A stretch of DNA of 64,000 nt from a virus (IMGVR_UViG_3300021399_000098); one strand, 5' to 3'; shown: positions 25,222 through 60,863, numbered from the stretch's first letter. The notes: generated by a model not told the origin, from the letters alone. Translations and numbers: made by a program.

Positions 25222-25722
25222 TTATTTTTGATATTTTTCAACTCCCTTTTGAAAACCATAATTATATCCAGCCTCATTATTATGACTTCTAAGAGGGTTT
25301 GGCGTATTTAAACTATCCTTATAACCTTTCCAAGCTTCATCATCAGCTCTTCCAATAATTTTGGAATTTTCAGCCCTATCTTTAATACCCATATTAGTTC
25401 TATACCCCTTTGCTGCTCTCCTACCTTTAACTGCATTAAGGGCAAAATTACCACGAGGCGTATCACCAATTTCACTCAGTATTCTGTTTACAGACTCTTT
25501 AACAATTCTATGTAAGTCTGACTCTGTTAATCTTATAATGGTTTGTTCCTCAACTTTTTCTGGAAGTCCTTTATGCTTTGTTTCAGCAAAATCTTTAACA
25601 TCATTCATTGACATTCCATTTGCAGCTTTCTTTATCTTGCTGCTTGGATTCTTCATTTCACCTTTCTTATAGGCATCAACCATACCGAAGAATCTCTGTT
25701 GTGCTTTACTCTTACTTGGCAT
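25222..25722 (-). CDS. DUF3008-like protein with internal IRLTESDL tag
   Basis: MPSKSKAQQRFFGMV...DFAETKHKGLPEKV followed by IIRLTESDLHRIVKESVNRILSE. Confidence 0.65.
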   Translation of the reverse strand: MPSKSKAQQRFFGMVDAYKKGEMKNPSSKIKKAANGMSMNDVKDFAETKHKGLPEKVEEQTIIRLTESDLHRIVKESVNRILSEIGDTPRGNFALNAVKGRRAAKGYRTNMGIKDRAENSKIIGRADDEAWKGYKDSLNTPNPLRSHNNEAGYNYGFQKGVEKYQK

Positions 25723-25723
25723 A

Positions 25724-27706
25724 TTAATTAGTATTTAATTTATTATTTTCGTATTTGTAGTTATTTTCTATAATTAATTGCTCCATGAAACAATTATAAA
25801 TCTTGAATGACTTAAGATAACCGATGAAAGTACCAGCAAAACTCTTCTCTAGAGGGTAAACCCTAGTTGGGTCTAGCATATAGTTATACTGTATCGTCTC
25901 AGCCAATCCTTGCGTACCTCCACCTATTGAAATGTTGTAAGGAACGCCCTCTTGCTTCTCATATAAGTCATTCAAAGCTTTTGGACTGATTCTAGGTAAT
26001 TCCTCTGTGATATATCTAAGCTTTCCGTTTACATAGAACATGAGCTTCATCTTGTCACCGCCCAAGAACGTTATTCTAACATTAACAGTAGTCCATTCAC
26101 AATCTGGTATCACGTTTTCAAATGAATAACCTTCCATTATCTTGGTCTTGTCATCGCCTTCCTTGTCACAGTCAATCGTAAGCAGTCTATAGCCTATTTC
26201 ACCATTATCTGTGATTCTAAACGCCAAAGCATTGTTATAGATGTCATAGTATGGATTATAGTAATTGATGTCCTTATCCCTAAGTTCGTCAATGTTGGCA
26301 ATGGTATATCCAGTCTTTGTACGGTTCATCAATATGAAAAGATTACCTTTGAAATGGTTTTTCCTACCCATGTACATAAATTCAGTACCTTCAACCCAAT
26401 TGGCAATCGTCTTGCCGTTTTTAGTTCTGTCAAACATCATAAACTTGTTGTCAGTGTAGAAATAGTACCAATTTGCCTCTTTCAAGTTGAAACCATTGTC
26501 AGTGTAATATTCAAAGTCTGATATGTCCAATTCTGGCTCAACATAGTCTTGACAGTCAACCGTGTCTTCTAGTCCATCCCATCCTCCAATATATCCGTCT
26601 CCAAAAGGGTCATTCCAGTCGATTTCAGACGTTTCTGACGTGGTTGTGGACTTGTATACCTTCTTGTACTTAATAGGGCATCCACAGCCCACAAAATAAG
26701 GCTGTAGGGTATAATCCTTTTCAACCTTGCCACAGCACCAACCCATTGTTATATGGTCTTCATCTTCATCTATCAATTTCGGCTGTTTCCTAACTTCAAT
26801 TTCAAGGTAATCTGACATGTCCTCCCAATCACAATAATCATCAGCATATAACTCATCGTCATAGTAGTTGAAATTGGTATAATCGTCAATGTCTAGGAAA
26901 TCACCGACATAGTTAAGGCTGACATCGCTGAAATTGCCTATGATATGAGTTTTCTTGTCTATACCGCCATCTTCAACGAAATCATCCATTCCCAACTGGT
27001 AACATTCCTCAAGCCCATATTGGTCATTTTCATCATATAGATAAACCCACTTGTTCTCAGCCCTAGTTCCGATATAGAAGAAAATGCCCTTATTTTCAGG
27101 ATATTTGTCATTCAACGTTTTTGTTGACTCAGCTTCTAAATCACACTTTTTCAAAGTGAACTCAAAATAATACACATCACCGTCATCAAACTTGGATGGC
27201 AAAACTTGGTACTTGTCACATTCTGTCTTGAAAAAGCCTTGGTAGAAACCACCATTTAACTTTACATAACCATCTTCAACATGCAACGGATATTCGTATA
27301 ACAAAGTATTGCCACTAACGGCATGTAGCTTGAGCCTATTATCATCAGCTTCAATCTTCAACGTGTTTGACTTGAACAAGTCAACAAAATCCTTATTGCT
27401 TATTCTGTCTTTCCTGTAGGTGAAAAGACCGTTGTCAACTCCAGTGTATGTTATATTATATAATGTATGTTCCAATGATATGGATTTATCCCATGTATAA
27501 TCGTTCTTTCCGTAAATCCAATTATCCTCACCAATACAGTCACTATCAGACAAATCTATGTACGATATAAGGCACTTATCATACAACTCATTTGGATTGC
27601 TTCCATAATACCCATAAGAGTCCTTATTAACAAAGAAATCCCAATACTCATCCTTGTTAAATCTAAATTTTAGCCTATGATAGTTATTTACCTTTAAATT
27701 TGCCAT
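25724..27706 (-). CDS. Hypothetical, probably virion structural protein (acidic, possible beta-sandwich C-terminus)
   Basis: 660-aa ORF with a TATTTAT site upstream; YVNGKL...ISIGGG near the C-terminus. Confidence 0.55.
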   Translation of the reverse strand: MANLKVNNYHRLKFRFNKDEYWDFFVNKDSYGYYGSNPNELYDKCLISYIDLSDSDCIGEDNWIYGKNDYTWDKSISLEHTLYNITYTGVDNGLFTYRKDRISNKDFVDLFKSNTLKIEADDNRLKLHAVSGNTLLYEYPLHVEDGYVKLNGGFYQGFFKTECDKYQVLPSKFDDGDVYYFEFTLKKCDLEAESTKTLNDKYPENKGIFFYIGTRAENKWVYLYDENDQYGLEECYQLGMDDFVEDGGIDKKTHIIGNFSDVSLNYVGDFLDIDDYTNFNYYDDELYADDYCDWEDMSDYLEIEVRKQPKLIDEDEDHITMGWCCGKVEKDYTLQPYFVGCGCPIKYKKVYKSTTTSETSEIDWNDPFGDGYIGGWDGLEDTVDCQDYVEPELDISDFEYYTDNGFNLKEANWYYFYTDNKFMMFDRTKNGKTIANWVEGTEFMYMGRKNHFKGNLFILMNRTKTGYTIANIDELRDKDINYYNPYYDIYNNALAFRITDNGEIGYRLLTIDCDKEGDDKTKIMEGYSFENVIPDCEWTTVNVRITFLGGDKMKLMFYVNGKLRYITEELPRISPKALNDLYEKQEGVPYNISIGGGTQGLAETIQYNYMLDPTRVYPLEKSFAGTFIGYLKSFKIYNCFMEQLIIENNYKYENNKLNTN

Positions 27707-27764
27707 GTAATCTTCATTATTTTGTCATAAATAAATATTTATTTAATAATAAAACAAATAGATA

Positions 27765-28016
27765 ATGAAAATAATTAGTTTAAACGAATCACAGTTTGGA
27801 AGACTGTTCGAAGGAATTACTGATGGAGACTTCGGTGATAATCCTGTTCCAGACAGATTTGGGGCTGAAGTTACTGACCAAGCAAAACTCCACGAGCCAA
27901 ATGCTTCAACAGATGATACAGAAAATTCAGACCCAACACAAGTTCCTAAAACACCTAAAATGCACACTAGCCAACACTGGGGTGTTACTACTAGAAGTGC
28001 ATCAAATACAATTTAA
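27765..28016 (+). CDS. Small protein with N-terminal MKIISLNESQFGRLFE tag
   Basis: Leader nearly identical to that of the kinase-like gene 55646-56434. Confidence 0.65.
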   Translation: MKIISLNESQFGRLFEGITDGDFGDNPVPDRFGAEVTDQAKLHEPNASTDDTENSDPTQVPKTPKMHTSQHWGVTTRSASNTI

Positions 28017-28021
28017 AAGCT

Positions 28022-31143: not shown

Positions 31144-31572
31144 TTAGATTTGTACAATTAGAAGAATAGTATTTCTATCCATCTTAACTCTCTTATATTC
31201 TTTCCAATTTAGCAATTCTGCCAAAGCATATAATTGCGATAATTTTAGGTGATTCTTACCAAACTGTAAAGGCATTCTAAGATATTTAGAAGTCATTTCA
31301 TGTCCATTAAGCATCGGATTTGCACTAATTACCCCATCTTTATCTAGTGTGTCAAATGAGTCTCCCATTCTTGTTAATTTTGAATTAAGGGCATCTAAAT
31401 CCTCTTGTGTTAGACCTATTTTTATAGTTTGACTATAATGATGCCCCTCATCATCCCAATTGCTAGGATAACTAACAGAAGGCATACTTTCTTCCTTTAA
31501 TACTCTTTTTACTGATTCCTTCACGATTCTATGAAGGTCTGATTCTGTTAGTCTAATTAATTTCTTATCCAT
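31144..31572 (-). CDS. IRLTESDL-tagged hypothetical protein
   Basis: Starts MDKKLIRLTESDLHRIVKESVKRVLKE; has its own TATTTATA site at 31631-31638. Confidence 0.75.
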   Translation of the reverse strand: MDKKLIRLTESDLHRIVKESVKRVLKEESMPSVSYPSNWDDEGHHYSQTIKIGLTQEDLDALNSKLTRMGDSFDTLDKDGVISANPMLNGHEMTSKYLRMPLQFGKNHLKLSQLYALAELLNWKEYKRVKMDRNTILLIVQI

Positions 31573-31700
31573 AGTATATTATTTTTTGTATTTATTAGTC
31601 TTTTATTGCTGCATAGGTTAATTTATTTACTATAAATATTTGTTTATACGGATATGTTTTTATTTTTTCAAAAAAGAAATAATTTTTTAATATATTAAAA

Positions 31701-32912
31701 ATGGATAAAAAAATCAAAATGTTAGTAATACCATCTGACCGTACAGGTGTTGGTAAGTTCCGTTCAGTTGACCCTCACGTATACATTGGTGAGCATTATT
31801 CTGACGAATTCGATGTGGATGTTGTGTACAACATGCCAAACGGAAACTTGGAAGAGTTCTTGAAACAGTACGACTTGATTCACATTCACAAACAGCTTGA
31901 CAAAAACTGTCAATTAATCGACTTAATGAAATTCTTGGGAATTCCAGTTATCATAGACATTGATGACCATTTCAAACTAGGAAATGACCATCCAATGTCA
32001 ATTACAGCAAAAAAGGACAAGTGGCATGAACCTATCATCAATCACTTGAAGAGGGCTGATTACGTTACAACTACAACTCCAATTTTTGCTGACGTTATTA
32101 GGCCATTTAATAAAAATGTAATGGTTTTCCCAAATGCAATTAACCCAGAGGAAAAACAATACACTGTTCCAAAGACACAAGGTGACGGAAGACTTAGAGT
32201 TGGTATTATTTGTGGCTCATCACACTTGAAGGACTTGCAATTGCTTGACGGCATCGCAAAGCAAATCAACAAAGACAAGGTACAATTCATCCTATGCGGA
32301 TTCGACACGAGAGGTACTAGAACCATCTACAGAGAAGACGGACAAGTTGAGACAAGACCTATTAGGCCAGAGGAAAGCGTGTGGTGCGAGTATGAAAGGA
32401 TATTCAGCGACAACTATAAACTAGTTTCAGAAGAACATAAGAACTTCTTATTGCAATATAACGCACACATTGATGACCCATTTACAAATGAGCCTTATAG
32501 AAGAATGTGGACAAGAGACATCAGCAACTATGCCACACACTATGCAAACGTAGATGTATTGATTGCTCCTTTGAAGGAAAACGAATTCAATAAGGTTAAA
32601 TCAGAACTTAAGGAAATTGAGTGCGGATTTACACATACAGCTTTTATTGCTCAGAACTTTGGAGCATATACCCTCAACCTTATTCCAATGATTGAAAAGG
32701 GTGGAAAGATTAACGAAAACGGCACTGCATTATTGGTGGATACATCTAAAAATCATAAGCAATGGGCTAAGTACATCAACAAGCTTGCTGACGATAGGGA
32801 AATGCTTAAGAAGCTTCAAGACAACCTTTACAACTACGTCAAAGACAAGTATTCATTGGACACAATTTGTAAACAAAGAGTAGAATTTTATAAGAAAATT
32901 GTAAATAAGTAA
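31701..32912 (+). CDS. Glycosyltransferase, GT-B fold
   Basis: DIDDHF, ADYVTTTT, FPNAI and DVLIAPLKENEFNKVKSELKEIE motifs. Confidence 0.8.
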   Translation: MDKKIKMLVIPSDRTGVGKFRSVDPHVYIGEHYSDEFDVDVVYNMPNGNLEEFLKQYDLIHIHKQLDKNCQLIDLMKFLGIPVIIDIDDHFKLGNDHPMSITAKKDKWHEPIINHLKRADYVTTTTPIFADVIRPFNKNVMVFPNAINPEEKQYTVPKTQGDGRLRVGIICGSSHLKDLQLLDGIAKQINKDKVQFILCGFDTRGTRTIYREDGQVETRPIRPEESVWCEYERIFSDNYKLVSEEHKNFLLQYNAHIDDPFTNEPYRRMWTRDISNYATHYANVDVLIAPLKENEFNKVKSELKEIECGFTHTAFIAQNFGAYTLNLIPMIEKGGKINENGTALLVDTSKNHKQWAKYINKLADDREMLKKLQDNLYNYVKDKYSLDTICKQRVEFYKKIVNK

Positions 32913-32940
32913 AGGAAATTACAATCAACATTACAAAAAA

Positions 32941-33070
32941 TAACAATAATATAAATAATATAAAATTTTAAAAGAATATTATATATTAAATAAAATATAT
33001 AGTATTCTTTTTTTAATATATATTATATATTATTATATAAAGAAAAGAAATATATAAAGAAAAGAAAAAT
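32941..33070. other. Extremely AT-rich intergenic region with inverted and direct repeats
   Basis: 18-bp imperfect inverted repeat 32970-32987/32994-33011; tandem tatataaagaaaagaaa x2 at 33034-33067. Confidence 0.7.
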
Positions 33071-33084
33071 TCGTTATTCAATTT

Positions 33085-33116
33085 TTTGCTTTTTTAACTT
33101 TTTTTTTATATCTTTG
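33085..33116 (+). promoter_or_regulatory. Bacteroidota-type promoter
   Basis: TTTG 33085-33088, 20-nt spacer, TATCTTTG 33109-33116. Confidence 0.75.
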
Positions 33117-33141
33117 CATTGAAGTTAAAAAAGTTAAAATT

Positions 33142-33708
33142 ATGATTACAACAGAAACAAAAGAAAAAAACTTAAAGTTATTTTTTAAAAAACTCTCACA
33201 GCTTGGCATTAATTCAGAATGTCTTGAGAGCATGTATGGTGAAAAAATCCTCAACGCAAGTTTCACCAATTCAAATGAGTATGGAAACGCATATGAAGGT
33301 TCGTTCCTAGAAATCGTACTTAAAAAGCTTACTCCATATGCTGTTAAGCTTAACGAACTTTTGCCAGAGGATAAAAGGGTTGACAAAGATTCCCTAGTTA
33401 AAATTTGTCTTCTTCACCAAATTGCCAAAGCGATTAGACTTGTGCCAAATGATAATCAATGGGAGGTTGAAAAGAGAGGCTTTGTCTACAAGTATGACAG
33501 CAACTTGCCATCAATCAGAACTGGTCTTCATTCCCTAGTCATGTGTCAAAACTGCGGAATTCAGTTCACGGCAGAAGAGGCAGAGGCAATGACGGTCAAT
33601 GACAGAGACATGACTGACGAGCAAGCTAGATGGTTCTCAAGCATAATGGCAACCATTGTTAGGCAAGCTAGTGAATTAACATACTTAGAAATTAACGATA
33701 AGAAGTGA
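33142..33708 (+). CDS. HD-domain-like protein with degenerate metal site
   Basis: AYEGSFLEIVL...ICLLHQIAK where HD hydrolases have LLHDIGK. Confidence 0.55.
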   Translation: MITTETKEKNLKLFFKKLSQLGINSECLESMYGEKILNASFTNSNEYGNAYEGSFLEIVLKKLTPYAVKLNELLPEDKRVDKDSLVKICLLHQIAKAIRLVPNDNQWEVEKRGFVYKYDSNLPSIRTGLHSLVMCQNCGIQFTAEEAEAMTVNDRDMTDEQARWFSSIMATIVRQASELTYLEINDKK

Positions 33709-34397
33709 TGGAAAATACAGATAACTTGACGTATGACAACAGGGCATACATTGAAGGTGATACAAAAGATTTATTCACCTATCTGAAAGAAGCAATAGGA
33801 CATTCACCACTTGAGGTTGGTTTCAAAAAACTAGACAAGGATGCAGTTATACCAAGCTATGCTCACGATGGTGATGTTGGAATGGATTTTACAGCAATCA
33901 GTGTAGAATACGACCAAGAAAAGGACATATACATTTATCACACTGGTCTTGCTTTCGAAACGGAAAAACATTACGGTGCATTTCTTTTCCCAAGAAGTTC
34001 TAACAGAAAAACGGATGCTTACCTATGCAATCACGTTGGAATTGCTGACACTGCAATCTATAGGGGTGAAATAATGTTTTGTTATAAAAACAGAACTTCA
34101 CTTGAAGTTAGGGCAGAAATTGAAAAAAGCAGATATTTGATTTCGCGCTTGTCTTATGAGCCATTTACTGTAAGCAATGGCGATGCGGTAATGTTTCAAT
34201 GGCCACATGTGGCAAAGGATGCAGAAAATGCAGGAAATTGGATTTATGACAATCCAATGAATTTTGCACCTTATAAAGCAGGTGATAAAATAGGTCAAAT
34301 GGTAGTTCTTCCTTATCCAAATGTGAAATTGGTTGAAAGAATGGAATTATCTGAGACTGTTCGTGGAGATAATGGTTTTGGTTCAACAGGAAATTAA
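33705..34397 (+). CDS. dut: Trimeric dUTPase
   Basis: Motifs GMDF, PRSS, GIADTAIYRGEI, IGQMV and RGDNGFGSTG. Confidence 0.92.
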   Translation: MMENTDNLTYDNRAYIEGDTKDLFTYLKEAIGHSPLEVGFKKLDKDAVIPSYAHDGDVGMDFTAISVEYDQEKDIYIYHTGLAFETEKHYGAFLFPRSSNRKTDAYLCNHVGIADTAIYRGEIMFCYKNRTSLEVRAEIEKSRYLISRLSYEPFTVSNGDAVMFQWPHVAKDAENAGNWIYDNPMNFAPYKAGDKIGQMVVLPYPNVKLVERMELSETVRGDNGFGSTGN

Positions 34398-34399
34398 TT

Positions 34400-34936
34400 A
34401 TGAACATATTAGAAGTATTTTTTTGGTATTGCAAGTCTATGGGAATTATGGGTGAAATGTGGAACATATACCAAAATGCTAATTTTGGAACATGGAAGTA
34501 CGACCAGTCTTTAAACAAATCATATTACGGCAAATACAAATTTAAAGAACATCTTGAATTTAGTTGCAACAGATATGGTATGATAGGACTATTTTGCGGT
34601 TTGGAAGATTGTTGCCATCACACTCTATACCGACTAATGAAAAGTGAAAAGATTAAAAGGGCTAGAAGAAATTGGGTTAGATTTGTTAAAAACAACCTAA
34701 TCGTTTTACCTTCATTTGTTAAAGAAGGGGATAGGATACATGCAGTTACTAATTTTATTACTGTAGAAGGAGTTCTTGAAAAAATAACAGAAAATAAGGA
34801 ACTTTTGGTAAGAGACAATAATGGAAGAGTCAATTATGTAAGTTTATTTAGACCTATTACCATAAACGGAAAAAAAAGAGAACCAAAGTTTATAATTAAG
34901 AAAAATAGAAAAATATATGGGGCTGATAAAGAATAA
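34400..34936 (+). CDS. Hypothetical protein
   Basis: 178-aa ORF packed in the operon. Confidence 0.6.
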   Translation: MNILEVFFWYCKSMGIMGEMWNIYQNANFGTWKYDQSLNKSYYGKYKFKEHLEFSCNRYGMIGLFCGLEDCCHHTLYRLMKSEKIKRARRNWVRFVKNNLIVLPSFVKEGDRIHAVTNFITVEGVLEKITENKELLVRDNNGRVNYVSLFRPITINGKKREPKFIIKKNRKIYGADKE

Positions 34937-36029
34937 AGTGTATTACACATATACAGATGTTACAATATTACCAGGAGTGATAAGTAACATCGAACACAGA
35001 AAAGAATGTATTCCTTTAGATGAAAACGGAATGTTACCATTGTTTACTGCTCCTATGGACACTGTTGTTGATGAGCATAATTGCCAACAGTTTACCGATG
35101 AAATGGTTTACGCAATACTGCCGAGGACAGTTTCTTTTGAGACTAGGCTGTCATACTCCATCAAAAATCGTTGGGCTGCATATTCACTTGCAGAGTTTGA
35201 AACTGCTTTTTGCACTGAAAGTAACAAGCTTGACGAATCAAACGGTATAAAGGTATTAATAGATATTGCAAACGGCCATATGAAAAAAGTTCTAGACTTG
35301 ATTAGGGCAGCAAAGAACATATACGGTCAGAACATCACCATAATGGTCGGAAATATAGCGAATCCTTACACATTTGAAAAACTCTCAAAAGCTGGTGCGG
35401 ATTTCATTCGTTGCGGAATAGGAAGTGGTTGCGGATGCTTATCTACGAGCAATACTGGAATACATATGCCAATGGTTTCACTTATTGATGAAATTTCAAC
35501 AATTAAAAAAGACTTTAGTCTTAAAGCTAAAATAGTCGCAGATGGCGGTATAAGGAATTACTCTGACATTATTAAGGCAATCGCTGTTGGTGCTGACTAT
35601 GTGATGGTAGGAAGTGTGTTTGCCAAGATGTTTGAATCGGCAGCACCGAAATATCCGAATTCTGAAGACTGGGCAGAAAAACCACTTGGAGTGGAACTTA
35701 GGGATTTGGAAAACATACACAAAGAAGGAAATGCTTGGTATGGCTCATACAACCATAAGGAAATTTTTCTAGGTAACATCAGTCTTAAGTTCTATGGAAT
35801 GGCATCAAAACAAGGGCAAATCGCTTTAAATGGCACTAAAACCAAGACAAGTGAAGGTTTGATGAAAACTTTGCAAGTTGAATATACAATGCATGGATGG
35901 TGTATGAACTTTATTGATTACCTTCGTTCTGCAATGTCATATGTCGGAGTTAAAACGTTAGATGATTTTAGAAGAGAATCTGTAGTCATTATAAATTCTC
36001 CAAATGCAGTTTCTGCTGTTAATAAATAA
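34917..36029 (+). CDS. IMP dehydrogenase/GMP reductase family enzyme lacking CBS domains
   Basis: APMDTV, IDIANGH, GIGSGCGC, ADGGI, FYGMAS and LRSAMSYVG motifs. Confidence 0.9.
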   Translation: MGLIKNKVYYTYTDVTILPGVISNIEHRKECIPLDENGMLPLFTAPMDTVVDEHNCQQFTDEMVYAILPRTVSFETRLSYSIKNRWAAYSLAEFETAFCTESNKLDESNGIKVLIDIANGHMKKVLDLIRAAKNIYGQNITIMVGNIANPYTFEKLSKAGADFIRCGIGSGCGCLSTSNTGIHMPMVSLIDEISTIKKDFSLKAKIVADGGIRNYSDIIKAIAVGADYVMVGSVFAKMFESAAPKYPNSEDWAEKPLGVELRDLENIHKEGNAWYGSYNHKEIFLGNISLKFYGMASKQGQIALNGTKTKTSEGLMKTLQVEYTMHGWCMNFIDYLRSAMSYVGVKTLDDFRRESVVIINSPNAVSAVNK

Positions 36030-36044
36030 CTTTTTCAAAAAATT

Positions 36045-36080
36045 AAGTGATTAAGAATTGATTCTTAGTCACTTTTTTTT
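36045..36080 (+). terminator. Intrinsic terminator
   Basis: aagtgattaagaat/attcttagtcactt stem followed by a T tract. Confidence 0.7.
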
Positions 36081-36095
36081 ATTTTTTAATAAAAA

Positions 36096-36785: not shown

Positions 36786-36808
36786 TTTTTGGTACAATTT
36801 TTGCTAGT

Positions 36809-49803: not shown

Positions 49804-52800
49804 TTAATCACCACCCTCAATTATGTCAAGGATTCTGTCATATTCACTTTCAAGTGCTGAAATTTTACTGCTGTGCTGAGTGTCTTGCTGTGTTGACCTA
49901 GTTGCCTCAGACGTTAGGTTAGACTCCAATGCAGCTACTCTAGCTTCCAATGCAGATAGTTGACTTGTCAAACCACTTATGATTGCGTTCTTTGAAACGT
50001 ACAATGCATTTGCGTCAATTGATGCAGCATTATCATCGTGTGTGTTGTTAAGAATCAATCTAGCTTTCAAAACGTCTTCACTTGATACGTTTCTTTCCTT
50101 GGTCAACTCAATTGCTCCTTGGTGTCCATCTTCAGCTCTCCACTCTTCGATTAAGTCGCCTACTGGAACTCTAACGTCTTCCTTTCTAGCACCGTTTACA
50201 GTGTACTCAATTACAATCTCTTCATTTGGTTTGTCATAATAGATATTGTTTATTTCTGACTTACTCTTGAGCTTAATTGACGTAGTACCAATTGTATTGG
50301 TGAACAAAAGCTCATTGTCTTCCTCATCATATGCTAGGCTAGCATTTGCATAGATACCGTCAGCATTTAGTTTAATGATTTGTCCTTCACTTGTGCTGAT
50401 ATTAACACCAACTGCTGGTCTTGTTGCATTCGTGTTGTCAACTGTAATTGACGCATCCTTTGCAGTAATAGCTTCAAGCTTATTTAATACACTGTTTTCC
50501 AATGCAGTAACCCTTGTATCGAGTGCTGTGTCGGCAGTTTCTCTAGCTCTTGTCTCTTCTGTGATTGTGCTGTTAAGTTCAGCATCAGCAGCCTCACGAG
50601 TATTAGCCTCGTCTGTTACGGTAGCAGCAATTGCAGCGTCCTTTGCGTCAACTTCTGACTTAGAATAGAAATCTGTAGGTATTTCTTCCTTAGTTGCAAA
50701 CTTGTTGTCAGCCTCAGCCTTGTAATATACATCTACTGAATTTGCTTTGGTTGTTAGTGTATTTTCCAACAACATGTCAGCGTTTTGTCTAGCAGATGTT
50801 TCGTTATTCAACTGTGTCTGCAACGTAGTGATTTTTGCATTAAGCTCAACGTCAGCAGTTGTCAATGTGTTGATTTGAGTCTGCAATGCAGCATCGGCAG
50901 TTGACCTGTTGCTAGTTTCTGTAGCCAAGTCATTGCTAACTTGAGTGATGTATCTGTTCAAGCTCTGGTCAGCATCTTCTCTTGCAGTCTGCTCTCTAGC
51001 GATTTGCAAGCCCAATGCAACGTCTTCGTTCTGTCTTGTTGAAGCTTCATTGTTGATTGCCGTCTGTAAAGCTGAATCAGCGTTTTCTCTAGCGATAGCC
51101 TCAGTTGAAATTGCATTTGTCAATTCATTGTCTGCTGCTAGTCTCTCTGCTTTCTCTTGAGTGATTGCTGCTTCCAACAAAGCGTCTTTAGACTCTCTTG
51201 TAAGCTTCTCTAAGTCTAAGTCATTCTTGATGCCATCAATTCCTTCAACCTTCAAGCCTGCGCTAGATACGGTTAAATAGCTTTCAGATGCTGAATCAAC
51301 CTTAACGCTAACTTCACCTGCGCTGTTGACTTTAAGTCCATCTTTGAACTCAGCCTCAACTAAGAATATTGAAACGTCAAGGTATTCTTCTTTTTCAGTT
51401 CCGTCTTCCAAGATATAGGTGAACTTCAAGAACTGGCCTTCTCTAGAGCCATAATGGTCTACAAGTTCAACGTCCTTCAATGAAGAGTCCTTATAAACCT
51501 TAATCATTTCACCTAGCTGCTCACCACCAGCATTTGTAAGCTTATAGGCTTCTCTTACGTTTGCATCGAGTCCAATGGTTACTTTTTCAATCTTGACCTT
51601 ATTAGCCTCTATTTCGTCTGATAATGCTTCATCAGCAGCTTCCCTTGCAGCAACTTCAGCAGCAATAGCAGCTTCCAATTCAGCATCTTTGTCTGCTCTA
51701 GCTTGTGCCTCGTCAGCATCAGCTTGTGCCCTTGCAGCAGCTTCCTCATCGATTGCAGTCTGCAAAGCGGTGTCAGCAGATTCACGGATAGCAGCTTCAT
51801 TATCAATTGCCTCTTGTAATGCATTGTCAGCAGCTTCTCTAGCAGTAGCTTCCTCATCTATTGCGTTCTGCAAAGCGGTATCACCAGAAATTCTCTCAGC
51901 TTTTTCAGCTTCAAGTGCTTCCTCTAATGCAGTGTCAGCAGACTCACGGATAGCAGCTTCCTCATCTATTGCGTTCTGCAAAGCGGTATCAGCAGAAATT
52001 CTCTCAGCTTTCTCTTGCTCAAGTGCTTCTTCTAAAGCGGTGTCAGCAGATATGCGCTCTGCTTTCTCTTGTTCAAGTGCTTCTTCTAAAGCGGTGTCAG
52101 CAGAAATTCTTTCAGCTTTTTCCTCTTCCAATGCTTCCTCAAGGGCTGTGTCAGCAGATATGCGCTCAGATTTCTCTTGTTCTAAAGCTTCCTCAAGTGC
52201 GGTGTCAGCGGAGATGCGTTCAGCTTTCTCTTGCTCAAGAGCCTCTTCAAAGGCTTCTTCTAAAGCTGTGTCAGCAGATATGCGCTCTGCTTTCTCTTGC
52301 TCAAGTGCATCTTCCAATGCGGTATCAGCAGAGATACGTTCAGCTTTCTCTTGCTCAAGAGCCTCTTCAAGAGCACTATCACCAGAGATACGCTCTTCCT
52401 TCTCTTGTTCCAAAGCCTCTTCTAGAGCAGAGTCACTAGAAATGCGTTCTTGTATTTCTTCCTCAAGTGCTTCCTCAAGTGCAGAATCACCAGAGATACG
52501 TTCAGCTTTTTCTTGTTCTATCATTTCGATGATAGTTTCTCCGCTTGTGAAAGCTGAAATAACTTCCCAAATTTCTTGGTCAGCAGCTTCTCTTTCGGCC
52601 TTTTCTGTGTCGATTGTCTCAACTAGGTCATCAAGAGGAACTTCAACAAAGTCATCATTATCGAATGTAACAGTGATGTTTTTTGTTTCTGAATCGTAGC
52701 TAGCATTTTTAATTAAGTCAGAAGGATATACGTCTGACAACTTTGCGCTTGCGATTTTATCACCATTATCGTTCTTGAAGACAAAAGACTTACTGTTTCT

Positions 52801-52977
52801 ATCGTATTCAACACCAAAGAATGCGTCAGCTAGAATCTCTTCAATTTCCTTTTCAACGGTTGAACCTGACCCACCTTGACCATCTATGATAGCTTGGCAA
52901 ATCATATTACCTTCGCTCATATACTTGTTTTGCTCCCTGTAGCCATATGGCTGTTGCATTCTGTTTCCTTTATTCAT
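49804..52977 (-). CDS. Coiled-coil fibre protein with 18-aa tandem repeats
   Basis: LEQEKAERISADTALEEA repeats; N-terminal PYGYREQNKY; shares modules with 17213-22396. Confidence 0.75.
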   Translation of the reverse strand: MNKGNRMQQPYGYREQNKYMSEGNMICQAIIDGQGGSGSTVEKEIEEILADAFFGVEYDRNSKSFVFKNDNGDKIASAKLSDVYPSDLIKNASYDSETKNITVTFDNDDFVEVPLDDLVETIDTEKAEREAADQEIWEVISAFTSGETIIEMIEQEKAERISGDSALEEALEEEIQERISSDSALEEALEQEKEERISGDSALEEALEQEKAERISADTALEDALEQEKAERISADTALEEAFEEALEQEKAERISADTALEEALEQEKSERISADTALEEALEEEKAERISADTALEEALEQEKAERISADTALEEALEQEKAERISADTALQNAIDEEAAIRESADTALEEALEAEKAERISGDTALQNAIDEEATAREAADNALQEAIDNEAAIRESADTALQTAIDEEAAARAQADADEAQARADKDAELEAAIAAEVAAREAADEALSDEIEANKVKIEKVTIGLDANVREAYKLTNAGGEQLGEMIKVYKDSSLKDVELVDHYGSREGQFLKFTYILEDGTEKEEYLDVSIFLVEAEFKDGLKVNSAGEVSVKVDSASESYLTVSSAGLKVEGIDGIKNDLDLEKLTRESKDALLEAAITQEKAERLAADNELTNAISTEAIARENADSALQTAINNEASTRQNEDVALGLQIAREQTAREDADQSLNRYITQVSNDLATETSNRSTADAALQTQINTLTTADVELNAKITTLQTQLNNETSARQNADMLLENTLTTKANSVDVYYKAEADNKFATKEEIPTDFYSKSEVDAKDAAIAATVTDEANTREAADAELNSTITEETRARETADTALDTRVTALENSVLNKLEAITAKDASITVDNTNATRPAVGVNISTSEGQIIKLNADGIYANASLAYDEEDNELLFTNTIGTTSIKLKSKSEINNIYYDKPNEEIVIEYTVNGARKEDVRVPVGDLIEEWRAEDGHQGAIELTKERNVSSEDVLKARLILNNTHDDNAASIDANALYVSKNAIISGLTSQLSALEARVAALESNLTSEATRSTQQDTQHSSKISALESEYDRILDIIEGGD
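51770..52520 (-). repeat. Degenerate 54-bp tandem repeat encoding 18-aa coiled-coil units (approximate bounds)
   Basis: More than a dozen EQEKAERISADTAL-type units, one with a 4-aa insertion (FEEA). Confidence 0.85.
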
Positions 52978-53006: not shown

Positions 53007-55007
53007 TTAAATCAAGTTTCCAATAATTGTGTTAAGGCATTTGTATTCACCGTTAATCCACATATAGATGTCACCATTTTTTCTGACCTCAAATGCATTT
53101 TTTCTGTCAATAGTAGAAGTACCTATGCCGATACTAAACACAGTTTTTTCGTCATCATTGAATCCAGTATTTGATTTATTATATCTACCAAATGCAGCTT
53201 CTTGCTCGTTCTTTGCTTCAACACCTTCTGAAACATTGGCAATTGATACCTTCATGTCATGCACCTCTCTATGCATTACATCAACGATTCCATTACCCTC
53301 ATCAGTATAGTCCGCACGGTCATCGCCTTTCCAGTCAGTTAATGCTGCAACGATGTTTCCGATGTGTGTTGTTGCGCTAATCAAACTTGTTTCTTGTCCT
53401 AGTGCACGAGAACGTTCACTTGCTATGCTTGCTGCCAATGAAACCTCTTCACCTCTAGCGCGTTGTCTCTCAGCCTCTACCTTGCCGTCTATTTCGTTTA
53501 GAACGTCATTCTTAACAGCATTTACATATGTCTTGTCAGCCTTTCCGCTTATTTCTCTCTCAAGAGGTTCTACAATCTCGTCTTGGATGAATATTCTAAG
53601 CTGGCTATCCTTGTTGTCAGTATAAATGTTAGCCTCATCAACAGCATTTGCAGCAACCTTATCAGCGTACTTTCTAGTTCCGTAAATGGTCAATGCAATA
53701 TCCTTATCAGTTGGTTGTCCAACGATGGCAGCATCACTTGCAATTCGGTCAGCAATTTCTTGTTCCAAACCACTCTCAAGGTTTGCAATCTTATTGTCTC
53801 TTCCAACATTATCCTCTTCGATGTCATCAATTAAATCGTCAACCCCATCTATTCTGTTACCCAATGCAGCATCACTAGCAATGCGGTCAGCAATTTCTTG
53901 GTCGATTTTCCCATTCAAGCCATCAACTGCGGCACTCACTTCATTTAATGCAGTCTTGTCAGCTTTTTTATCATCCAAGTTATTGATTGCGTTTGTGATG
54001 TTTGTCTTGTCAACGTTATAGTCAATCTTGTCAACCTTATTGTTCAAGTTAGACTTAACAACATCTACTTCAGCTTTTAAATCATTGAAATCACTCTTAT
54101 TTACCTTGTTTGGTAATGCAACCTCATTGATTTGCCTAATGTCTTCCTTATTTGCATTGATTTGGTTCTGCAAGTCATCAACTCTTCCGTTTAGACCGTC
54201 AATTTCCCTGTCATGCTTAGTCTCCAAAGTTGTGAGTCTTCCATTAAGGGTATCTAATCTAGCGTTGGTGTTGTTCTTGAACGTTGTGTAATCGTTGTTT
54301 AATGAATTGTACTGGTTGTACAAATTCGTTTGAACATCGTTAACTCTATCCTCAAGGGCTGTAAGCCTTGCTTTTGTAGCGTATTTCGAATCGGCATCAG
54401 TTTCAGTAATGAAACCTCTATTCATGACCCACTCCTTAGTTGCTACGTTATCCGTACCTTCTTCGATTAGTTGGTCAACCTCTCTTTTTGTATATACATC
54501 AGACTTTTTGGCATAAGTTTCCTCTGCCTCAGTCTTGTCTAATTTTTTCCCAAGCTCTTCGCTTATCTCAGCGAATTTCCTCTCAGCTTCCTCTTCGAAT
54601 CCTGCGTAATTGTCAACCTTTTGATTCAATGCGGTAATCTCTCCGTCAATTTCACCAAGTCTGTCATAGATTGGGTTGAAGTCATCAACAAGCTCATTCA
54701 ACTTATCGGTGATTTCAACGTCTCTCTGCTGCAAGCCATTAATCTTTTCAGAGTTAGAAGCAATTGCATGAGCTAGACTTTCATTGATGCGTGCTTGAGT
54801 ATCAATGAAACTGTCAACTTTTCCGCTAAGTTCGTTTACCAACTCAAGGTCAGCCTTTTCTTTAGTTGCGCCAGAAAGCTCGCTAATCTCCTTGTCTTGC
54901 TCCTTGTTAGTTTCACGAATGTCACTCAAGTCTGCATTAGGGATGCCGATATATACGTTCTGGTCAGCATAACCATAGTATTCTAGGTGTCTTATTCTTT
55001 TTCCCAT
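53007..55007 (-). CDS. Coiled-coil fibre protein
   Basis: KADK-type coiled-coil breaks; C-terminal domain paralogous to 7514-8338; N-terminal YYGYADQNVY. Confidence 0.7.
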   Translation of the reverse strand: MGKRIRHLEYYGYADQNVYIGIPNADLSDIRETNKEQDKEISELSGATKEKADLELVNELSGKVDSFIDTQARINESLAHAIASNSEKINGLQQRDVEITDKLNELVDDFNPIYDRLGEIDGEITALNQKVDNYAGFEEEAERKFAEISEELGKKLDKTEAEETYAKKSDVYTKREVDQLIEEGTDNVATKEWVMNRGFITETDADSKYATKARLTALEDRVNDVQTNLYNQYNSLNNDYTTFKNNTNARLDTLNGRLTTLETKHDREIDGLNGRVDDLQNQINANKEDIRQINEVALPNKVNKSDFNDLKAEVDVVKSNLNNKVDKIDYNVDKTNITNAINNLDDKKADKTALNEVSAAVDGLNGKIDQEIADRIASDAALGNRIDGVDDLIDDIEEDNVGRDNKIANLESGLEQEIADRIASDAAIVGQPTDKDIALTIYGTRKYADKVAANAVDEANIYTDNKDSQLRIFIQDEIVEPLEREISGKADKTYVNAVKNDVLNEIDGKVEAERQRARGEEVSLAASIASERSRALGQETSLISATTHIGNIVAALTDWKGDDRADYTDEGNGIVDVMHREVHDMKVSIANVSEGVEAKNEQEAAFGRYNKSNTGFNDDEKTVFSIGIGTSTIDRKNAFEVRKNGDIYMWINGEYKCLNTIIGNLI

Positions 55008-55645: not shown

Positions 55646-56434
55646 TTAATCTGCATAATGTTTTTCCCAAAGGTCAAGATTCATGCCAGCATCTAGTATA
55701 ACTAGTGTTGGCTTTCCGTCTCTATTGACCATTCCATAATTTTCAACGTTACAAAAATCAGACATTCCTGTTTCCTCAACCAAATCCCTAAGTGCACTCA
55801 ACCATTCTGAATTGTCTATCATATTTTCAATTTCTTCAGAATGATAACCTTCATCTGTTACATAATTGGATTCCAAATAACAGAAAATATCATACAACGT
55901 ATTTCCTTTATACTCTTGATACGGAGTTTTAATATTATCAAAATATTTATTAAACCCAACTGTTGTATCACCTTTGCCATTCTTACTAGAAACTTTCTTT
56001 GAGTTCTGATACCAAACATTGTTCACTGGTATACCCAATATTTTCTCAAAGTCTGTTTCTGTAGCTGGAACAACATTTTCACAAACAATGTATGTAAAAT
56101 TTTCGTCTGCATCAAATACTCTAGCTAATAATGGAGATTTATAACGGTTGTACATTTCATATTCCAATTTATTTTGTTCAACCCCAGCATTTCTATAGTC
56201 ACCCATAGCTAGTTTCAAAACAACATTATCGCTTAATGTGAATACACATCTTGAAGAACCGAAACCATCTGGCTCCCCTAACCATTTAACGCAATATTCA
56301 TACTGTTTCTCCCAATCTCTCCAATCAGAAAAAGCATCGCCACCAAGAATAGACAAGGTTTCAAAAGAAAAGCCTTCTCTATAAGCCTCAAACAGCCTAT
56401 TTTTCTGTGATTCGTTTATTTTAATAATTTTCAT
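55646..56434 (-). CDS. Protein-kinase-like protein with N-terminal tag
   Basis: Gly loop GFGSSRCVF, VVLKLA, QNKLE, DFCNVENYG and ILDAG; leader MKIIKINESQKNRLFE. Confidence 0.65.
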   Translation of the reverse strand: MKIIKINESQKNRLFEAYREGFSFETLSILGGDAFSDWRDWEKQYEYCVKWLGEPDGFGSSRCVFTLSDNVVLKLAMGDYRNAGVEQNKLEYEMYNRYKSPLLARVFDADENFTYIVCENVVPATETDFEKILGIPVNNVWYQNSKKVSSKNGKGDTTVGFNKYFDNIKTPYQEYKGNTLYDIFCYLESNYVTDEGYHSEEIENMIDNSEWLSALRDLVEETGMSDFCNVENYGMVNRDGKPTLVILDAGMNLDLWEKHYAD

Positions 56435-56535
56435 ACAAAGAAACATTTTATATAAATATTTTCAAAAAAACATTTGTCTAGCTATTGATTTTTCAAAATA
56501 AAATATTATATTTTATTAATAAAATATAATATTTT

Positions 56536-58500
56536 ATGGCATTATCATTAAGTAAAATAGAAAAAGCTCACGAATTATTGAAGAATTACAACGGTAGCAA
56601 TTCTTACATAATTAAACTCAGGAACGTCATATTTGCCTACAGACTTAGGGCTATGAACGATTTTGAGGCTGAGTATGTTCTGTGTAATTATGACAAAGAG
56701 CCTAAGTTAATCAATAAAATTGTTAAAATAGCTGATTGGTATGGAGTAAAATGTCAAGAAGAGTGGAAAACTGAATTTACACCGAATAGGTTCAAAATTA
56801 CATGGTTTTTGGGCGAAACATCACAATTCTATCATTTCTATTGTGTCTATAGAAGGTCACAAGAAAAAGCTGTTGAGGTCTTTGCCCCAAAGAAAGGAAT
56901 CCTCACTGATTTCCTATGTGAGGATTGGAACTTGAAAGAAATTGATTTTAAGCCCTACAGCGACAAAAGTGGGCGCACCCTTTATCCTTATCAAGAAGAG
57001 GCTGTAAAGTTCCTTATAAGCCGTAAAAAGGCCATTCTCGCAAGCGAAATGGGCAGTGGTAAGACGTTGGCGGCAATCATAGCAGCATTGGAGGGAAAAT
57101 ACGAGAAGATTCTGATAATATGTCCAGCATCTGTAAAGCTCACTTGGAAAAAAGAATTGAACTTGTTGGTTGACGATGATGATATAACAATAGTTGAGGG
57201 TAGCAAGTGGAAGGAAAACAAATTCACAATCATCAACTATGACATTCTTAGGAATTTCTACGAAGTTCCAACTGAAATTGTCAAAAAGAAGGAACTTAAC
57301 TTGGATGACGATGGAAAAATTGTAAATATCATAAAGGAAAGGGAAGTCGTTTCAAGGAAGAAGTCAGTAATTGAAGAAGCAATGGAAAACAGCCAGCTTT
57401 ACCAATCAAAGTTCGACTTGGTGATAATAGACGAGGCACACAGGCTTTCAAACACCACAAGCGGAATTTTCAAGATAGTTTCTGACCTAATGCACAGAAG
57501 TAACCCTAAAGGTATTTTTGCCATAACTGGAACTCCTATCACCAACCGTCCTATAAATTTCTTCAACATACTGAAGATAATTGATGCTCCGTTGGCTAGT
57601 GATTGGAAATATTATGTTGAAAGATATTGTGACGGAAAGTTCTTCTACAATAAAAAAGAACGTGATGCATACTCTGCAATATTCTGTAGGAAAAAGAAAA
57701 AGGGTAGTTGGTATGACCTCACTCAAGAGGAAAAAGAAGAGCTTGATGGAATACTAGACAAAAACTGCAAGAAAATATGGGTCACTAACGGTTCTTCAAA
57801 CCTAGATGAGCTTCAAGAAGTAGTAAAGTCATACTATCTCAGAAGACTAAAAAGTGATTTCGGAAAGATAGTTAAAAAGACTGTTAAGGTTTTGAATTAC
57901 AAATTAACACCACAAGAAAAAAAGGAATATGACAGCGTATGGGAAGAGTATATTACGTCAAAAAATAACATTGACAAAGAGGATATTGACAAATATAAAA
58001 ATATTACTGAAGGGATTATGTTACGTCAATGGTTAGCAAAATCCATGACATCAAAGACGATTAAACTAGCGCAGAAATGCATAGACAGAGGTTATAAAGT
58101 GGTTATATTCTGCTCGTTTGATGATGAGCTTAACACCATTAAAAAAGCATTTAAAGACATTTGTGTAGTGCATAATGGAAAACAAACTGCCAAGAGGAAA
58201 GACAAAGCTGTGGAAGAGTTTCAAAATAACCCTGATATAAAAGTGTTTATCGGAAACATACAATCCGCTGGAGTTGGCCTTACCCTTGTCGCTTCTCGTG
58301 TTGCAATATTCAACAGCTTTTCATGGGTAAGCGGTGACAATCTGCAAGCAGAAGACAGGATTCACAGATTAAATCAAAAAAATGATGTAACTATTTATTA
58401 TCAAGTTTTTGAAGATACTTTTTATAAGGAAATGCTAGAAAAAGTGAGAGGAAAACAAGAAATAATAAACAATATAATCATTAGCGAAAATGATAAATGA
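56536..58500 (+). CDS. SNF2-family helicase/ATPase
   Basis: EMGSGKT, DEAH, TGTPITN, AGVGLTL and QAEDRIHR motifs. Confidence 0.92.
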   Translation: MALSLSKIEKAHELLKNYNGSNSYIIKLRNVIFAYRLRAMNDFEAEYVLCNYDKEPKLINKIVKIADWYGVKCQEEWKTEFTPNRFKITWFLGETSQFYHFYCVYRRSQEKAVEVFAPKKGILTDFLCEDWNLKEIDFKPYSDKSGRTLYPYQEEAVKFLISRKKAILASEMGSGKTLAAIIAALEGKYEKILIICPASVKLTWKKELNLLVDDDDITIVEGSKWKENKFTIINYDILRNFYEVPTEIVKKKELNLDDDGKIVNIIKEREVVSRKKSVIEEAMENSQLYQSKFDLVIIDEAHRLSNTTSGIFKIVSDLMHRSNPKGIFAITGTPITNRPINFFNILKIIDAPLASDWKYYVERYCDGKFFYNKKERDAYSAIFCRKKKKGSWYDLTQEEKEELDGILDKNCKKIWVTNGSSNLDELQEVVKSYYLRRLKSDFGKIVKKTVKVLNYKLTPQEKKEYDSVWEEYITSKNNIDKEDIDKYKNITEGIMLRQWLAKSMTSKTIKLAQKCIDRGYKVVIFCSFDDELNTIKKAFKDICVVHNGKQTAKRKDKAVEEFQNNPDIKVFIGNIQSAGVGLTLVASRVAIFNSFSWVSGDNLQAEDRIHRLNQKNDVTIYYQVFEDTFYKEMLEKVRGKQEIINNIIISENDK

Positions 58501-58507
58501 AAACAAT

Positions 58508-59068
58508 ATGAACGTTATTAAAACTGATATTGAAGGTGTTGTGATAATTGAACCAAAAATATTTAAAGACTCTAGAGGGTATTTTTTTGAGTCATTTTCA
58601 CAAAGGGAGTTTGATGAAAATGTAACTCCAATTAATTTCGTACAAGATAACGAAAGTATGTCTTCATATGGAGTTATGAGAGGTTTGCATTTCCAAAAAC
58701 CTCCATATGCTCAAAGCAAGTTGGTAAGATGTGTTAAGGGAAGAGTTTTGGATGTTGCTGTTGACATTAGGAAAGGCAGTCCTACATATGGTAGGCATGT
58801 AGCTGTAGAGCTTACAGAGGATAATCACAGACAATTATTCATCCCTAAAGGATTTGCTCATGGGTTTGCCGTACTGTCAGATGTTGCAGTGTTCCAATAT
58901 AAGTGTGATGAGTTCTATCATCCAGAGGTGGACGGTGGTATCAGTATTATAGACGATTCACTTGGGATAGATTGGAAAATACCAACAGACAAGGCAATAT
59001 TAAGTGAAAAGGACACAAAACATCCTTTGATGACTGAATTTGATTCACCATTTATTTATGAAAAATAA
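58508..59068 (+). CDS. rfbC: dTDP-4-dehydrorhamnose 3,5-epimerase
   Basis: DSRGYFFE, FVQDNES, RGLHFQ, DVAVDIRKGSPTYG and GFAHGF motifs. Confidence 0.95.
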   Translation: MNVIKTDIEGVVIIEPKIFKDSRGYFFESFSQREFDENVTPINFVQDNESMSSYGVMRGLHFQKPPYAQSKLVRCVKGRVLDVAVDIRKGSPTYGRHVAVELTEDNHRQLFIPKGFAHGFAVLSDVAVFQYKCDEFYHPEVDGGISIIDDSLGIDWKIPTDKAILSEKDTKHPLMTEFDSPFIYEK

Positions 59069-59934: not shown

Positions 59935-60331
59935 AAAAGACGAGGTGGTTAAACTTGGATTTATAAGACTAATCGGTGAAGAAACTGATGGGTATTACAG
60001 ATATGAGTTTATATTTACTGACAACATTGATGAGTTTTGGGGAGAAAATTTCGAATATAAACCAGCTTGCTTGGTTAACGACTTAACTCCGATGGATGAA
60101 TACATAACCGAAATTCACATTGTAAAAATGAAAATCAAACTAGACCTCATACAAAATTCATGCTGTTTCGGCTTCCAAGACTGTGCGGATGGCATAATTG
60201 CAATGGCATGGGAGAACTTGGACGAATATGATGAATATCCTGAAGAAGGTAGATTGTTCTTTAGATTCGGTGAGACATTAGAAGAGGTCGAAGAAAAATT
60301 AGCAATAAAAAACGTATTAATGATGAATTGA
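59927..60331 (+). CDS. Hypothetical acidic protein
   Basis: 134 aa; DCADGIIAMAWE motif. Confidence 0.65.
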   Translation: MIEKDEVVKLGFIRLIGEETDGYYRYEFIFTDNIDEFWGENFEYKPACLVNDLTPMDEYITEIHIVKMKIKLDLIQNSCCFGFQDCADGIIAMAWENLDEYDEYPEEGRLFFRFGETLEEVEEKLAIKNVLMMN

Positions 60332-60332
60332 T

Positions 60333-60584
60333 ATGGTAGAACCAATTTTTAAAAAAGGAGATTACATTATTAATCGTAATGCTGGCGATATGGCAATCGT
60401 CAAAGGAGTGACAAAGAAAAGCTATTACCAGTTTGATGCTTACTATGGAGGGATGTTTAAAGAATTAAAAGACGTAAAAAATTCAAATTATGACTTGCAA
60501 GTAAACTATCAAAAATTCTGGGATTTTTGTACCGATGATGAAAAGAAAAAACTAAACGATATAATAAAAAAAGGAGAGAATTAA
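60333..60584 (+). CDS. Hypothetical protein
   Basis: 83 aa; starts with FKKGDYI (SH3-like). Confidence 0.6.
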   Translation: MVEPIFKKGDYIINRNAGDMAIVKGVTKKSYYQFDAYYGGMFKELKDVKNSNYDLQVNYQKFWDFCTDDEKKKLNDIIKKGEN

Positions 60585-60596
60585 TTCTCTCCTTTT
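60569..60596. terminator. Perfect 28-bp palindrome, bidirectional terminator
   Basis: aaaaggagagaattaattctctcctttt between convergent genes. Confidence 0.75.
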
Positions 60597-60611
60597 AATG
60601 CTTATTAAACT

Positions 60612-60863
60612 TTAGTAAAAATCTTTCATAAGTCTAGCTGGTCTTTTATTAACCGTACTTCTACCAATTTCTTTCAATATTTTATTCACAGACTCTTTAA
60701 CCATTTTATGAAGGTCTGATTCAGTTAGTCTTATAAGTTTCTTTTCTGTTTTCTTTGATTCTGCTTGTATGTTATTTTCTTTTTGTTCTTTTGAAGCTTG
60801 GTACATTTTTCCAAATCCCATAGCTTGTGCTAATTCAAATCCGTTTTTAAAAGGTAGTGCCAT
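60612..60863 (-). CDS. Small IRLTESDL-tagged protein
   Basis: KKLIRLTESDLHKMVKESVNKILKE. Confidence 0.7.
   Translation of the reverse strand: MALPFKNGFELAQAMGFGKMYQASKEQKENNIQAESKKTEKKLIRLTESDLHKMVKESVNKILKEIGRSTVNKRPARLMKDFY

Follow-up and report, generated by a model that had tools for sequence, protein, structure and literature searches.

The DNA analysed here is a 64,000-nt stretch of the viral sequence IMGVR_UViG_3300021399_000098 (the window; all coordinates are counted from its first base), in which four genes with otherwise unrelated products encode a common peptide tag, IRLTESDLHxIVKESVNRILxE. The best-supported candidate role for this tag, which we favour with moderate confidence, is that of a leader (propeptide) that loads cargo proteins into a T4-style prohead and is cut at an (L/I)-x-E site. 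The proposal draws on sequence comparison and on four features: the sharp boundary of the tag at its final Glu, the presence of a gp21-type prohead protease in the complete tag-bearing phages, the position of tagged genes within the head module, and a TATTTAT motif upstream of tagged genes and head genes alike.

Tag copies and tagged genes in the window

A six-frame search of the window, using fuzzy matching and a profile, identified exactly five copies of the tag in four genes, all on the minus strand. The profile was an alignment of the five copies, and the controls were the reversed open reading frames (ORFs) of the window together with five shuffles of the same ORFs. The copies score between 63.5 and 72.9 bits, compared to a control maximum of 4.5 bits, and all five terminate in L-x-E. 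No mutual similarity was found among the four tagged proteins outside the tag, and the original prediction that near-identical tags occur in four dispersed genes of otherwise unrelated sequence is upheld by these scores. Per-column DNA identity among the copies is only 73%. Pairwise comparison of the window copies gave synonymous differences of 0.51–0.75 and non-synonymous differences of 0.10–0.17; synonymous sites are saturated (0.70) against a non-synonymous difference of 0.16. Since the peptide has been kept while its synonymous sites are saturated, selection has acted on the protein and not on the DNA, and a recent DNA duplication is ruled out as the source of the copies. The tag copies are old and have been held constant as protein.

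Gene 25222–25722 (minus strand) encodes a 166-amino acid (aa) protein with a DUF3008 domain at residues 4–57 (E 1.9e-7), an internal tag at residues 63–84 (25471–25536, minus strand, 71.6 bits) and a basic tail starting IGDTPRG. The 142-aa product of gene 31144–31572 (minus strand) begins with an N-terminal tag (31492–31557, minus strand, 70.2 bits), which is followed by a predicted disordered linker and a predicted folded alpha/beta cargo domain. The AlphaFold model of this protein (predicted template modelling score, pTM, 0.62) contains a helix at residues 10–26, a low-confidence segment at 29–47 and a folded region at 48–142. The cargo domain has no significant fold match in the PDB or among viral models, and the tag is present in all 12 of the 12 homologues of this protein. 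Gene 46688–47224 (minus strand) encodes a 178-aa protein composed of a full N-terminal tag (47144–47209, minus strand, 72.9 bits), a helical stretch, a half-tag and a small beta domain that begins with LPKGWE. The half-tag is an internal copy (46868–46933, minus strand, 63.5 bits) with a degenerate first half and a retained second half, and both tags are modelled by AlphaFold as lone helices, with an overall predicted local distance difference test score (pLDDT) of 58. The C-terminal beta-rich domain of this protein (46688–46850; LPKGWERI...IYRDPDFN.YVKDEYG) is predicted with a pLDDT of about 80. Several unrelated tagged proteins also have this domain behind their second tag, and the way it begins is reminiscent of a WW-type motif. 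The fourth gene, 60612–60872 (minus strand), had originally been given an end at 60863, which is corrected here. Its 86-aa product consists of a 46-residue head, a tag at residues 47–68 (60669–60734, minus strand, 69.8 bits) and a short basic tail, and its start overlaps the stop of the upstream gene 60865–62271 by 8 bases.

Boundary, register and placement of the tag

Conservation was measured on 254 unique tag copies. Each position of the tag has an information content of 3–4.3 bits; the value is 3.9 bits for the closing Glu and 0.7 bits for the residue that follows it. Within the final L-x-E, Leu (P3) is found in 214 of the 254 copies and Glu (P1) in 242, with P2 being variable; the Glu of the LTE motif is the most conserved residue of the tag (253/254). 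In 153 of the 167 N-terminal copies the tag starts four to five residues behind the initiator Met, which places one L-x-E at residues 8–10, and the final L-x-E of an N-terminal tag lies at about residue 27. Placement is N-terminal for 176 of 299 copies, internal for 112 and C-terminal for 11; within the window, two of the five copies are N-terminal. Almost half of the internal copies (43/87) keep a Met just upstream, in the form of a Met-Asn-Lys-Lys start. Two AlphaFold models predict with modest confidence that the tag is one continuous lone helix (residues 10–29 in one, 10–26 in the other) followed by disorder. A ribbon-helix-helix fold, considered for the strand and helix pattern of IRLTESDL..., was rejected, as the models contain a single helix and no Pfam or PDB match was obtained.

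Distribution and composition of tagged proteins

A search of the tag profile against 1.84 billion representative proteins returned 4,781 clusters under the threshold of E ≤ 0.001 and 791 under that of E ≤ 1e-10, and many of them contain the tag two to four times. Almost all of the matching clusters are small proteins without Pfam domains. With the tag masked, 207 retrieved tagged proteins separate into 87 unrelated groups. Tagged proteins have a median length of 153 residues; their cargo is rich in Asp, Asn, Gly, Lys and Tyr and varies widely in charge. A common architecture consists of a tag, a conserved EIGDTPKGQ..ALG..GRA module that is also present in the 25222–25722 protein, a second half-tag and a variable end. 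The tag itself exhibits no match in Pfam, PHROGs or the PDB, and its only hits in the protein atlas are unnamed viral clusters. No published description of the tag was found, and a comparative paper on jumbo phages mentions no such leader.

A Pfam scan of 67 of the longest tagged proteins matched only a handful (zinc ribbons, one receiver domain and one EF-hand pair) and identified no enzyme family among them, for which reason the idea that tagged proteins are enzymes was rejected. An arsenal of host-manipulation enzymes, as envisaged originally, does not emerge from the window either: its four clearly tagged proteins have no enzyme domain, and most of the weak tag variants noted on enzymes are noise.

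Phage lineage and head module

IMG/VR contains 222 stretches that encode the tag. The original prediction depends on a gp21-type protease, which was looked for in relatives: each of the five complete tag-bearing viral contigs (295–412 kb) encodes a Peptidase_S77 protein (the T4 gp21 family; E 8e-13 to 7.5e-25). The same five contigs carry 7–17 tag copies each when searched with a narrow profile. Two of the ten smaller tag-bearing contigs that were checked contain the protease. The notion that the tag is common to many phage types, and hence host-directed, was dropped because these ten contigs are 12–37% fragments (CheckV) and the five complete ones are T4-like. The capsid protein of the relatives matches gp23 of 2,587 T4-type phage records. 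The checked tag-bearing viral contigs belong to, or are consistent with, one lineage of T4-like jumbo phages, and the window's tag is carried by a giant T4-like phage of rumen Prevotella.

Among deposited phage genomes no close DNA-level relatives were found, and a 497-aa protein had no protein-level match there. The SNF2 helicase gene of the window and three neighbouring genes are 84–91% identical to, and syntenic with, those of contig G005, the closest complete relative, where they are immediately followed by the capsid, scaffold and protease genes; the window ends at base 64000, shortly before the corresponding point. On the basis of this synteny, the genome from which the window derives probably encodes the protease as well.

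The gene order in six relatives is terminase, portal, a 550–765-aa gene, a 75-aa gene, a variable island, protease, acidic scaffold and capsid protein. The island between portal and protease holds one to four canonically tagged genes in five of the six relatives and NESQ-type leader variants in the sixth, together with a conserved 144-aa gene. The capsid propeptide of the relatives aligns with that of T6 gp23; at the T6 site FLTE/AEIGG, which we take to be the actual cut site, it reads LIYE/A or LLKE/A. The scaffold of the relatives has L-x-E at residues 26, 38 and 50. The scaffold-like gene of locus L114 (9329–10822) and its orthologues encode acidic proteins of roughly 500 aa that start MSKNIRSKVVRESLLDY. 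A VV(R/K)ES(L) stretch in these proteins resembles the IVKESV core of the tag, a possible sign of mimicry of a scaffold helix by the tag.

The window also contains a 203-aa ORF with similarity to a capsid protein (40069–40680, plus strand), located in a glycosyltransferase operon with no TATTTAT upstream. Residues 33–113 of its product match residues 16–88 of the gp23-type capsid protein, which is the N-terminal propeptide region, in five relatives (E 1e-9 to 7e-8), after which the sequence diverges.

TATTTAT motif and expression timing

The capsid, scaffold, protease and portal genes of the six relatives are preceded, at 24–54 nt, by the sequence TATTTAT, which usually lies within GATATTTAT. 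The motif is found upstream of 60 of 102 N-terminally tagged genes compared to 248 of 905 other ORFs (odds ratio 3.8, p = 5e-10), with a distance to the start codon of mostly 21–30 nt. Within the window the motif marks 17 of the 61 genes, including tail-fibre-like genes and others that look structural, and is not present upstream of the polymerase, PhoH, SNF2 or glycosyltransferase genes. The motif probably represents a late promoter, and tagged genes carrying it would be expressed together with the head proteins.

The original placement of tagged genes in TATTTAT-led units is confirmed for three of the four genes in the window, two directly and one through an operon. A late-promoter-like TATTTAT at 47256–47262 (minus strand), within GATATTTAT, lies 38 nt upstream of the 46688–47224 start, and another at 31632–31638 (minus strand) lies 66 nt upstream of the 31144–31572 start. 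Two overlapping copies at 27727–27737 (minus strand) precede gene 25724–27706, which is separated by a single base from the tagged gene 25222–25722, and hence precede the operon that contains it. The spacer in which they lie (27707–27764) is palindromic (AAATAAATATTTATTTA) and carries TATTTAT on both strands, for the divergent genes 25724–27706 and 27765–28016.

Weaker variants of the tag

The original prediction also described weaker variants of the tag on several other proteins, most of which are not recovered by the tag profile. The motif in 62675 scores 8.0 bits and that in 27765 scores 4.0 bits, a control-level value; the PRTase-HAD, ART, WYL and ArdC motifs are absent from the 30 best window matches and find no support, and window matches under 8.0 bits all fall inside the control range. 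When the profile was iterated over 4,109 ORFs taken from the window and from related loci, it converged without recruiting the weak variants. Most of the weak variants on enzymes are statistically indistinguishable from chance.

Two leaders of another type remain plausible as distant relatives of the tag. Genes 27765–28016 and 55646–56446 both start with MKIIx(I/L)NESQ..RLFE, an intermediate leader (IRINENQF...IVKESV) occurs in one orthologue of the 31144 protein, and N-termini like that of 27765–28016 are found again in related contigs. Gene 27765–28016 (plus strand), a possible divergent leader variant with no statistical link to the tag at its 4.0 bits, encodes 83 aa starting MKIISLNESQFGRLFE and has a TATTTAT at −29. 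The other possible variant, 55646–56446 (minus strand), is an ORF of 266 aa, or about 262 aa when read from the second Met (MKIIKINESQKNRLFE). Its first ATG is 12 nt past a TATTTAT and its second Met, which starts MKIIKINESQ, a further 12 nt on; the second Met is probably the true start, as it gives the usual spacing of about 24 nt. The product of this gene is 51% identical over 270 aa to that of a gene in the portal–protease gap of relative G002, and no kinase or other Pfam domain was found in it.

Chromosomal copies and carriage by IS1595-family elements

The tag is encoded at 29 loci in species-representative genomes, nearly all of them Prevotellaceae or other Bacteroidales. Their G+C content (0.40–0.50 in most) is host-like and not phage-like. 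Around the tagged gene of the isolates Segatella bryantii DSM 11371 and Prevotella sp. MA2016 lie genes for glycoside hydrolases, a transposase and a beta-propeller protein, and no prophage genes. Each bacterial genome tested has a single copy; in a sample of 301 genomes of the family, one or two copies were present in 11. The chromosomal copies retain the phage-type GATATTTAT motif and the leader region, and about 110 bp upstream of the tagged start codon are conserved as DNA between loci.

A transposase of the IS1595 family (DDE_Tnp_IS1595, E 8.6e-43), whole or as a remnant, is convergent to the tagged gene at 16 of the 29 bacterial loci and 15 of 79 viral loci. Inverted repeats of about 24–28 bp (GGCAATAACATnGnAGTTGnC) flank the tagged unit at 24 loci, and units of 447–538 bp contain only a tagged gene between the repeats. 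The viral element at 5884–7402 of locus L032 has 28-nt inverted repeats at 5884–5911 and 7375–7402 and a 9-bp target duplication, TAATTTTTT, on both flanks, a duplication seen in this one element only. IS1595-family elements with a tagged passenger are also found at L005, L007, L024, L061, L063, L107 and L108, and versions of 2.4–2.7 kb carry a second, divergent passenger. The element occurs both in jumbo-phage contigs and in Prevotellaceae chromosomes. The transposase, inverted repeats and target duplication identify the chromosomal tag copies as transposon passengers. Transposon carriage explains how these copies arrived and why they behave as cassettes; it does not explain the function of the protein. 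None of the four tagged genes in the window has transposon repeats or a transposase.

Other genes of the window

Gene 12794–17170 (plus strand) encodes a 1,458-aa family B DNA polymerase that is apparently interrupted by an intein with a LAGLIDADG homing endonuclease, though the Pfam matches to Intein_splicing and LAGLIDADG_3 are weak. A dTDP-4-dehydrorhamnose 3,5-epimerase is encoded at 58490–59068 (plus strand; E 3.6e-73), and a long plus-strand gene block at 31701–46595 includes a weak match to a GT4 glycosyltransferase. The predicted functions of the epimerase and this block suggest phage-encoded sugar metabolism or modification. Three late genes look structural: 22421–24748, 49804–52977 and 53007–55007, all on the minus strand. 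A Fib_succ_major domain is present in one product. The 1,057-aa product has matches of tail-fibre type in other phages, and the 666-aa product is homologous to that of a capsid-adjacent gene of relative G001.

Proposed function and alternative explanations

In the proposed mechanism the tagged genes would be transcribed late, along with the head genes, and the N-terminal amphipathic helix of each product would bind the assembling scaffold core of the prohead, with the attached small protein becoming enclosed. The gp21-type prohead protease would then cut after the Glu of (L/I)-x-E, the candidate sites being LTE at residues 8–10 and the final L-x-E, and would free the cargo inside the head, to be ejected together with the DNA when the phage next infects a cell. 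Where a protein has a second, internal copy, this may act as an extra cut or docking site between modules. A head-loading leader cut by a gp21-type protease, as put forward in the original prediction, agrees with the genomic evidence of protease, TATTTAT motif, island position and L-x-E boundary; the enzymatic nature of the cargo and most of the weak variants that were part of the same prediction are not supported.

Several observations weigh against a cleaved head-loading leader. An L-x-E that ends an amphipathic helix is not rare in itself, and the gp21-type protease is absent inside the window. About a third of the tag copies are internal or C-terminal, including those of two of the four window genes, and Prevotellaceae chromosomes have solitary copies that lie outside prophages. 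Compared to the T4 leader, with which it has no sequence similarity, the tag is almost three times as long and far more conserved; taken with the internal copies and the EIGDT module, this length and invariance suggest more than the role played by the 10-residue leader of T4. The phages that carry the tag are all uncultured.

The same features would suit a helix that docks permanently on a virion or assembly structure (scaffold, inner capsid wall, portal or tail) and is never removed, with L-x-E being the helix end. The 27 residues of the tag and their near-invariance exceed the need of a cleaved T4-type leader (PMC9026906), internal and C-terminal copies exist, and the EIGDTPKGQ..ALG..GRA extension, present in many proteins, is like part of a larger domain; the late motif and the position in the head module fit a docking helix equally well. 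We nevertheless regard permanent docking as unlikely, given that conservation stops exactly after the Glu with P2 left variable, that the models predict a disordered linker after the tag and no packing of the tag on the cargo, and that the lineage retains a gp21-type protease and (L/I)-x-E junctions in both capsid propeptide and scaffold. A function outside the virion, in which the tag would be an interaction or oligomerisation helix bringing late accessory proteins to a cytoplasmic hub such as a host enzyme, chaperone or degradation adaptor, appears quite improbable. It would accommodate the Prevotellaceae chromosomal copies with no prophage nearby, the absence of any match of the tag to a known domain or solved structure, and cargoes that are small, hydrophilic and very diverse, like many anti-defence and takeover proteins. 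Takeover proteins are usually early, however, whereas the tagged genes carry the TATTTAT of the head genes and cluster in the gap between portal and protease; moreover, viral tags were found only in contigs consistent with one T4-like lineage, and the copies on chromosomes, which are carried as transposon passengers, retain a promoter motif of the phage type.

The mobile elements raise the further explanation that the promoter, leader region and tag form the conserved end of an IS1595-family mobile cassette and serve only as a recombination handle for swapping payloads. The convergent transposase at bacterial and viral loci, the inverted repeats, the single-gene units, the 9-bp target duplication of one element and the roughly 110 bp of conserved upstream DNA all speak for mobility. 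Mobility alone is still a highly improbable account, because the saturation of synonymous sites with the peptide kept indicates selection on the protein, and because the four tagged genes of the window have neither transposon repeats nor a transposase. It accounts for the spread of the tag and not for the invariance of the peptide, and it is compatible with a head-loading leader. A combination of the two, which we put forward as a long shot, would make the tagged genes mobile "capsid hitch-hiker" cassettes, each combining a payload with a head-loading leader and a phage late promoter, and carried by an IS1595-family element and its miniature derivatives between jumbo phages and Prevotella chromosomes. 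Chromosomal copies would in that case be silent until a phage supplies late transcription, and their product would then enter heads. The host might in this way spoil or mark the progeny particles as a counter-measure, or the cassettes might be a shared reservoir of new injected proteins for the phages.

If the tag is indeed a head-loading, cleaved leader, it would be the largest known deployment of such leaders, with the same label present in no fewer than 4,781 protein clusters. The candidate injected proteome of an uncultured group of giant gut and rumen phages could then be listed with one profile, many unannotated small metagenomic proteins would become one testable class, and foreign proteins could be directed into such particles with a ready-made tag. 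The copies borne on transposons would point to a way in which phages gain and exchange cargo genes and to a reason for hosts to carry them.

Comparison with known systems

The closest parallel is the capsid targeting sequence (CTS) of phage T4, which is carried by the internal proteins IPI, IPII, IPIII and Alt and is cut off by the prohead protease gp21 (Mullaney and Black 1996, reviewed in PMC9026906). The T4 leader has 10 residues, with processing determinants at residues 8 and 10 (PMC9026906). In the 176 of 299 copies that are N-terminal the tag, like the CTS, forms a leader on unrelated proteins; it ends in (L/I)-x-E, with the first L-x-E at residues 8–10. Its lineage likewise combines a protease of gp21 type with a gp22-like scaffold and a gp23-type capsid protein, and its cargo genes are variable and often arrayed. 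It differs in its 27 residues, near-invariant over thousands of clusters, compared to the 10 loosely conserved residues of T4, and in being often present twice per protein and also on transposon-borne cassettes and host chromosomes. A comparison of the tag with MKTYQEFIAE, made by eye only, revealed no similarity beyond a hydrophobic-x-Glu at residues 8–10. Should the tag prove to be a CTS, it would be an analogue or else only very distantly related, and not a recognisable member.

The giant phages SPN3US and phiKZ have propeptide-bearing ejection and inner-body proteins that are processed by a gp21-related prohead protease (PMC5694885, PMC7411985). To that extent they resemble the Prevotella phages, as jumbo phages that load much diverse protein into the head and trim it with a T4-related protease. 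The abstracts of these papers report that head proteins are cleaved and do not mention a near-identical common leader, and the lineage of SPN3US and phiKZ is unrelated to the Prevotella phages.

The head module of phage T6 has the order portal, 67, 68, protease, scaffold and capsid. The T-even prohead core genes 67 and 68, which lie between portal gene 20 and protease gene 21, are small genes in the same slot of the head module as the tagged genes. They share no sequence similarity with them, and in the Prevotella phages the slot is a variable island of tagged genes together with the 144-aa gene. The mobile units, for their part, resemble IS1595-family (ISXO2-like) elements in their transposase, terminal inverted repeats, target-site duplication and miniature non-autonomous derivatives. 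They differ in that the element, which is not present in the window, is found in phage and host genomes alike and carries as its passenger a tagged phage late gene.

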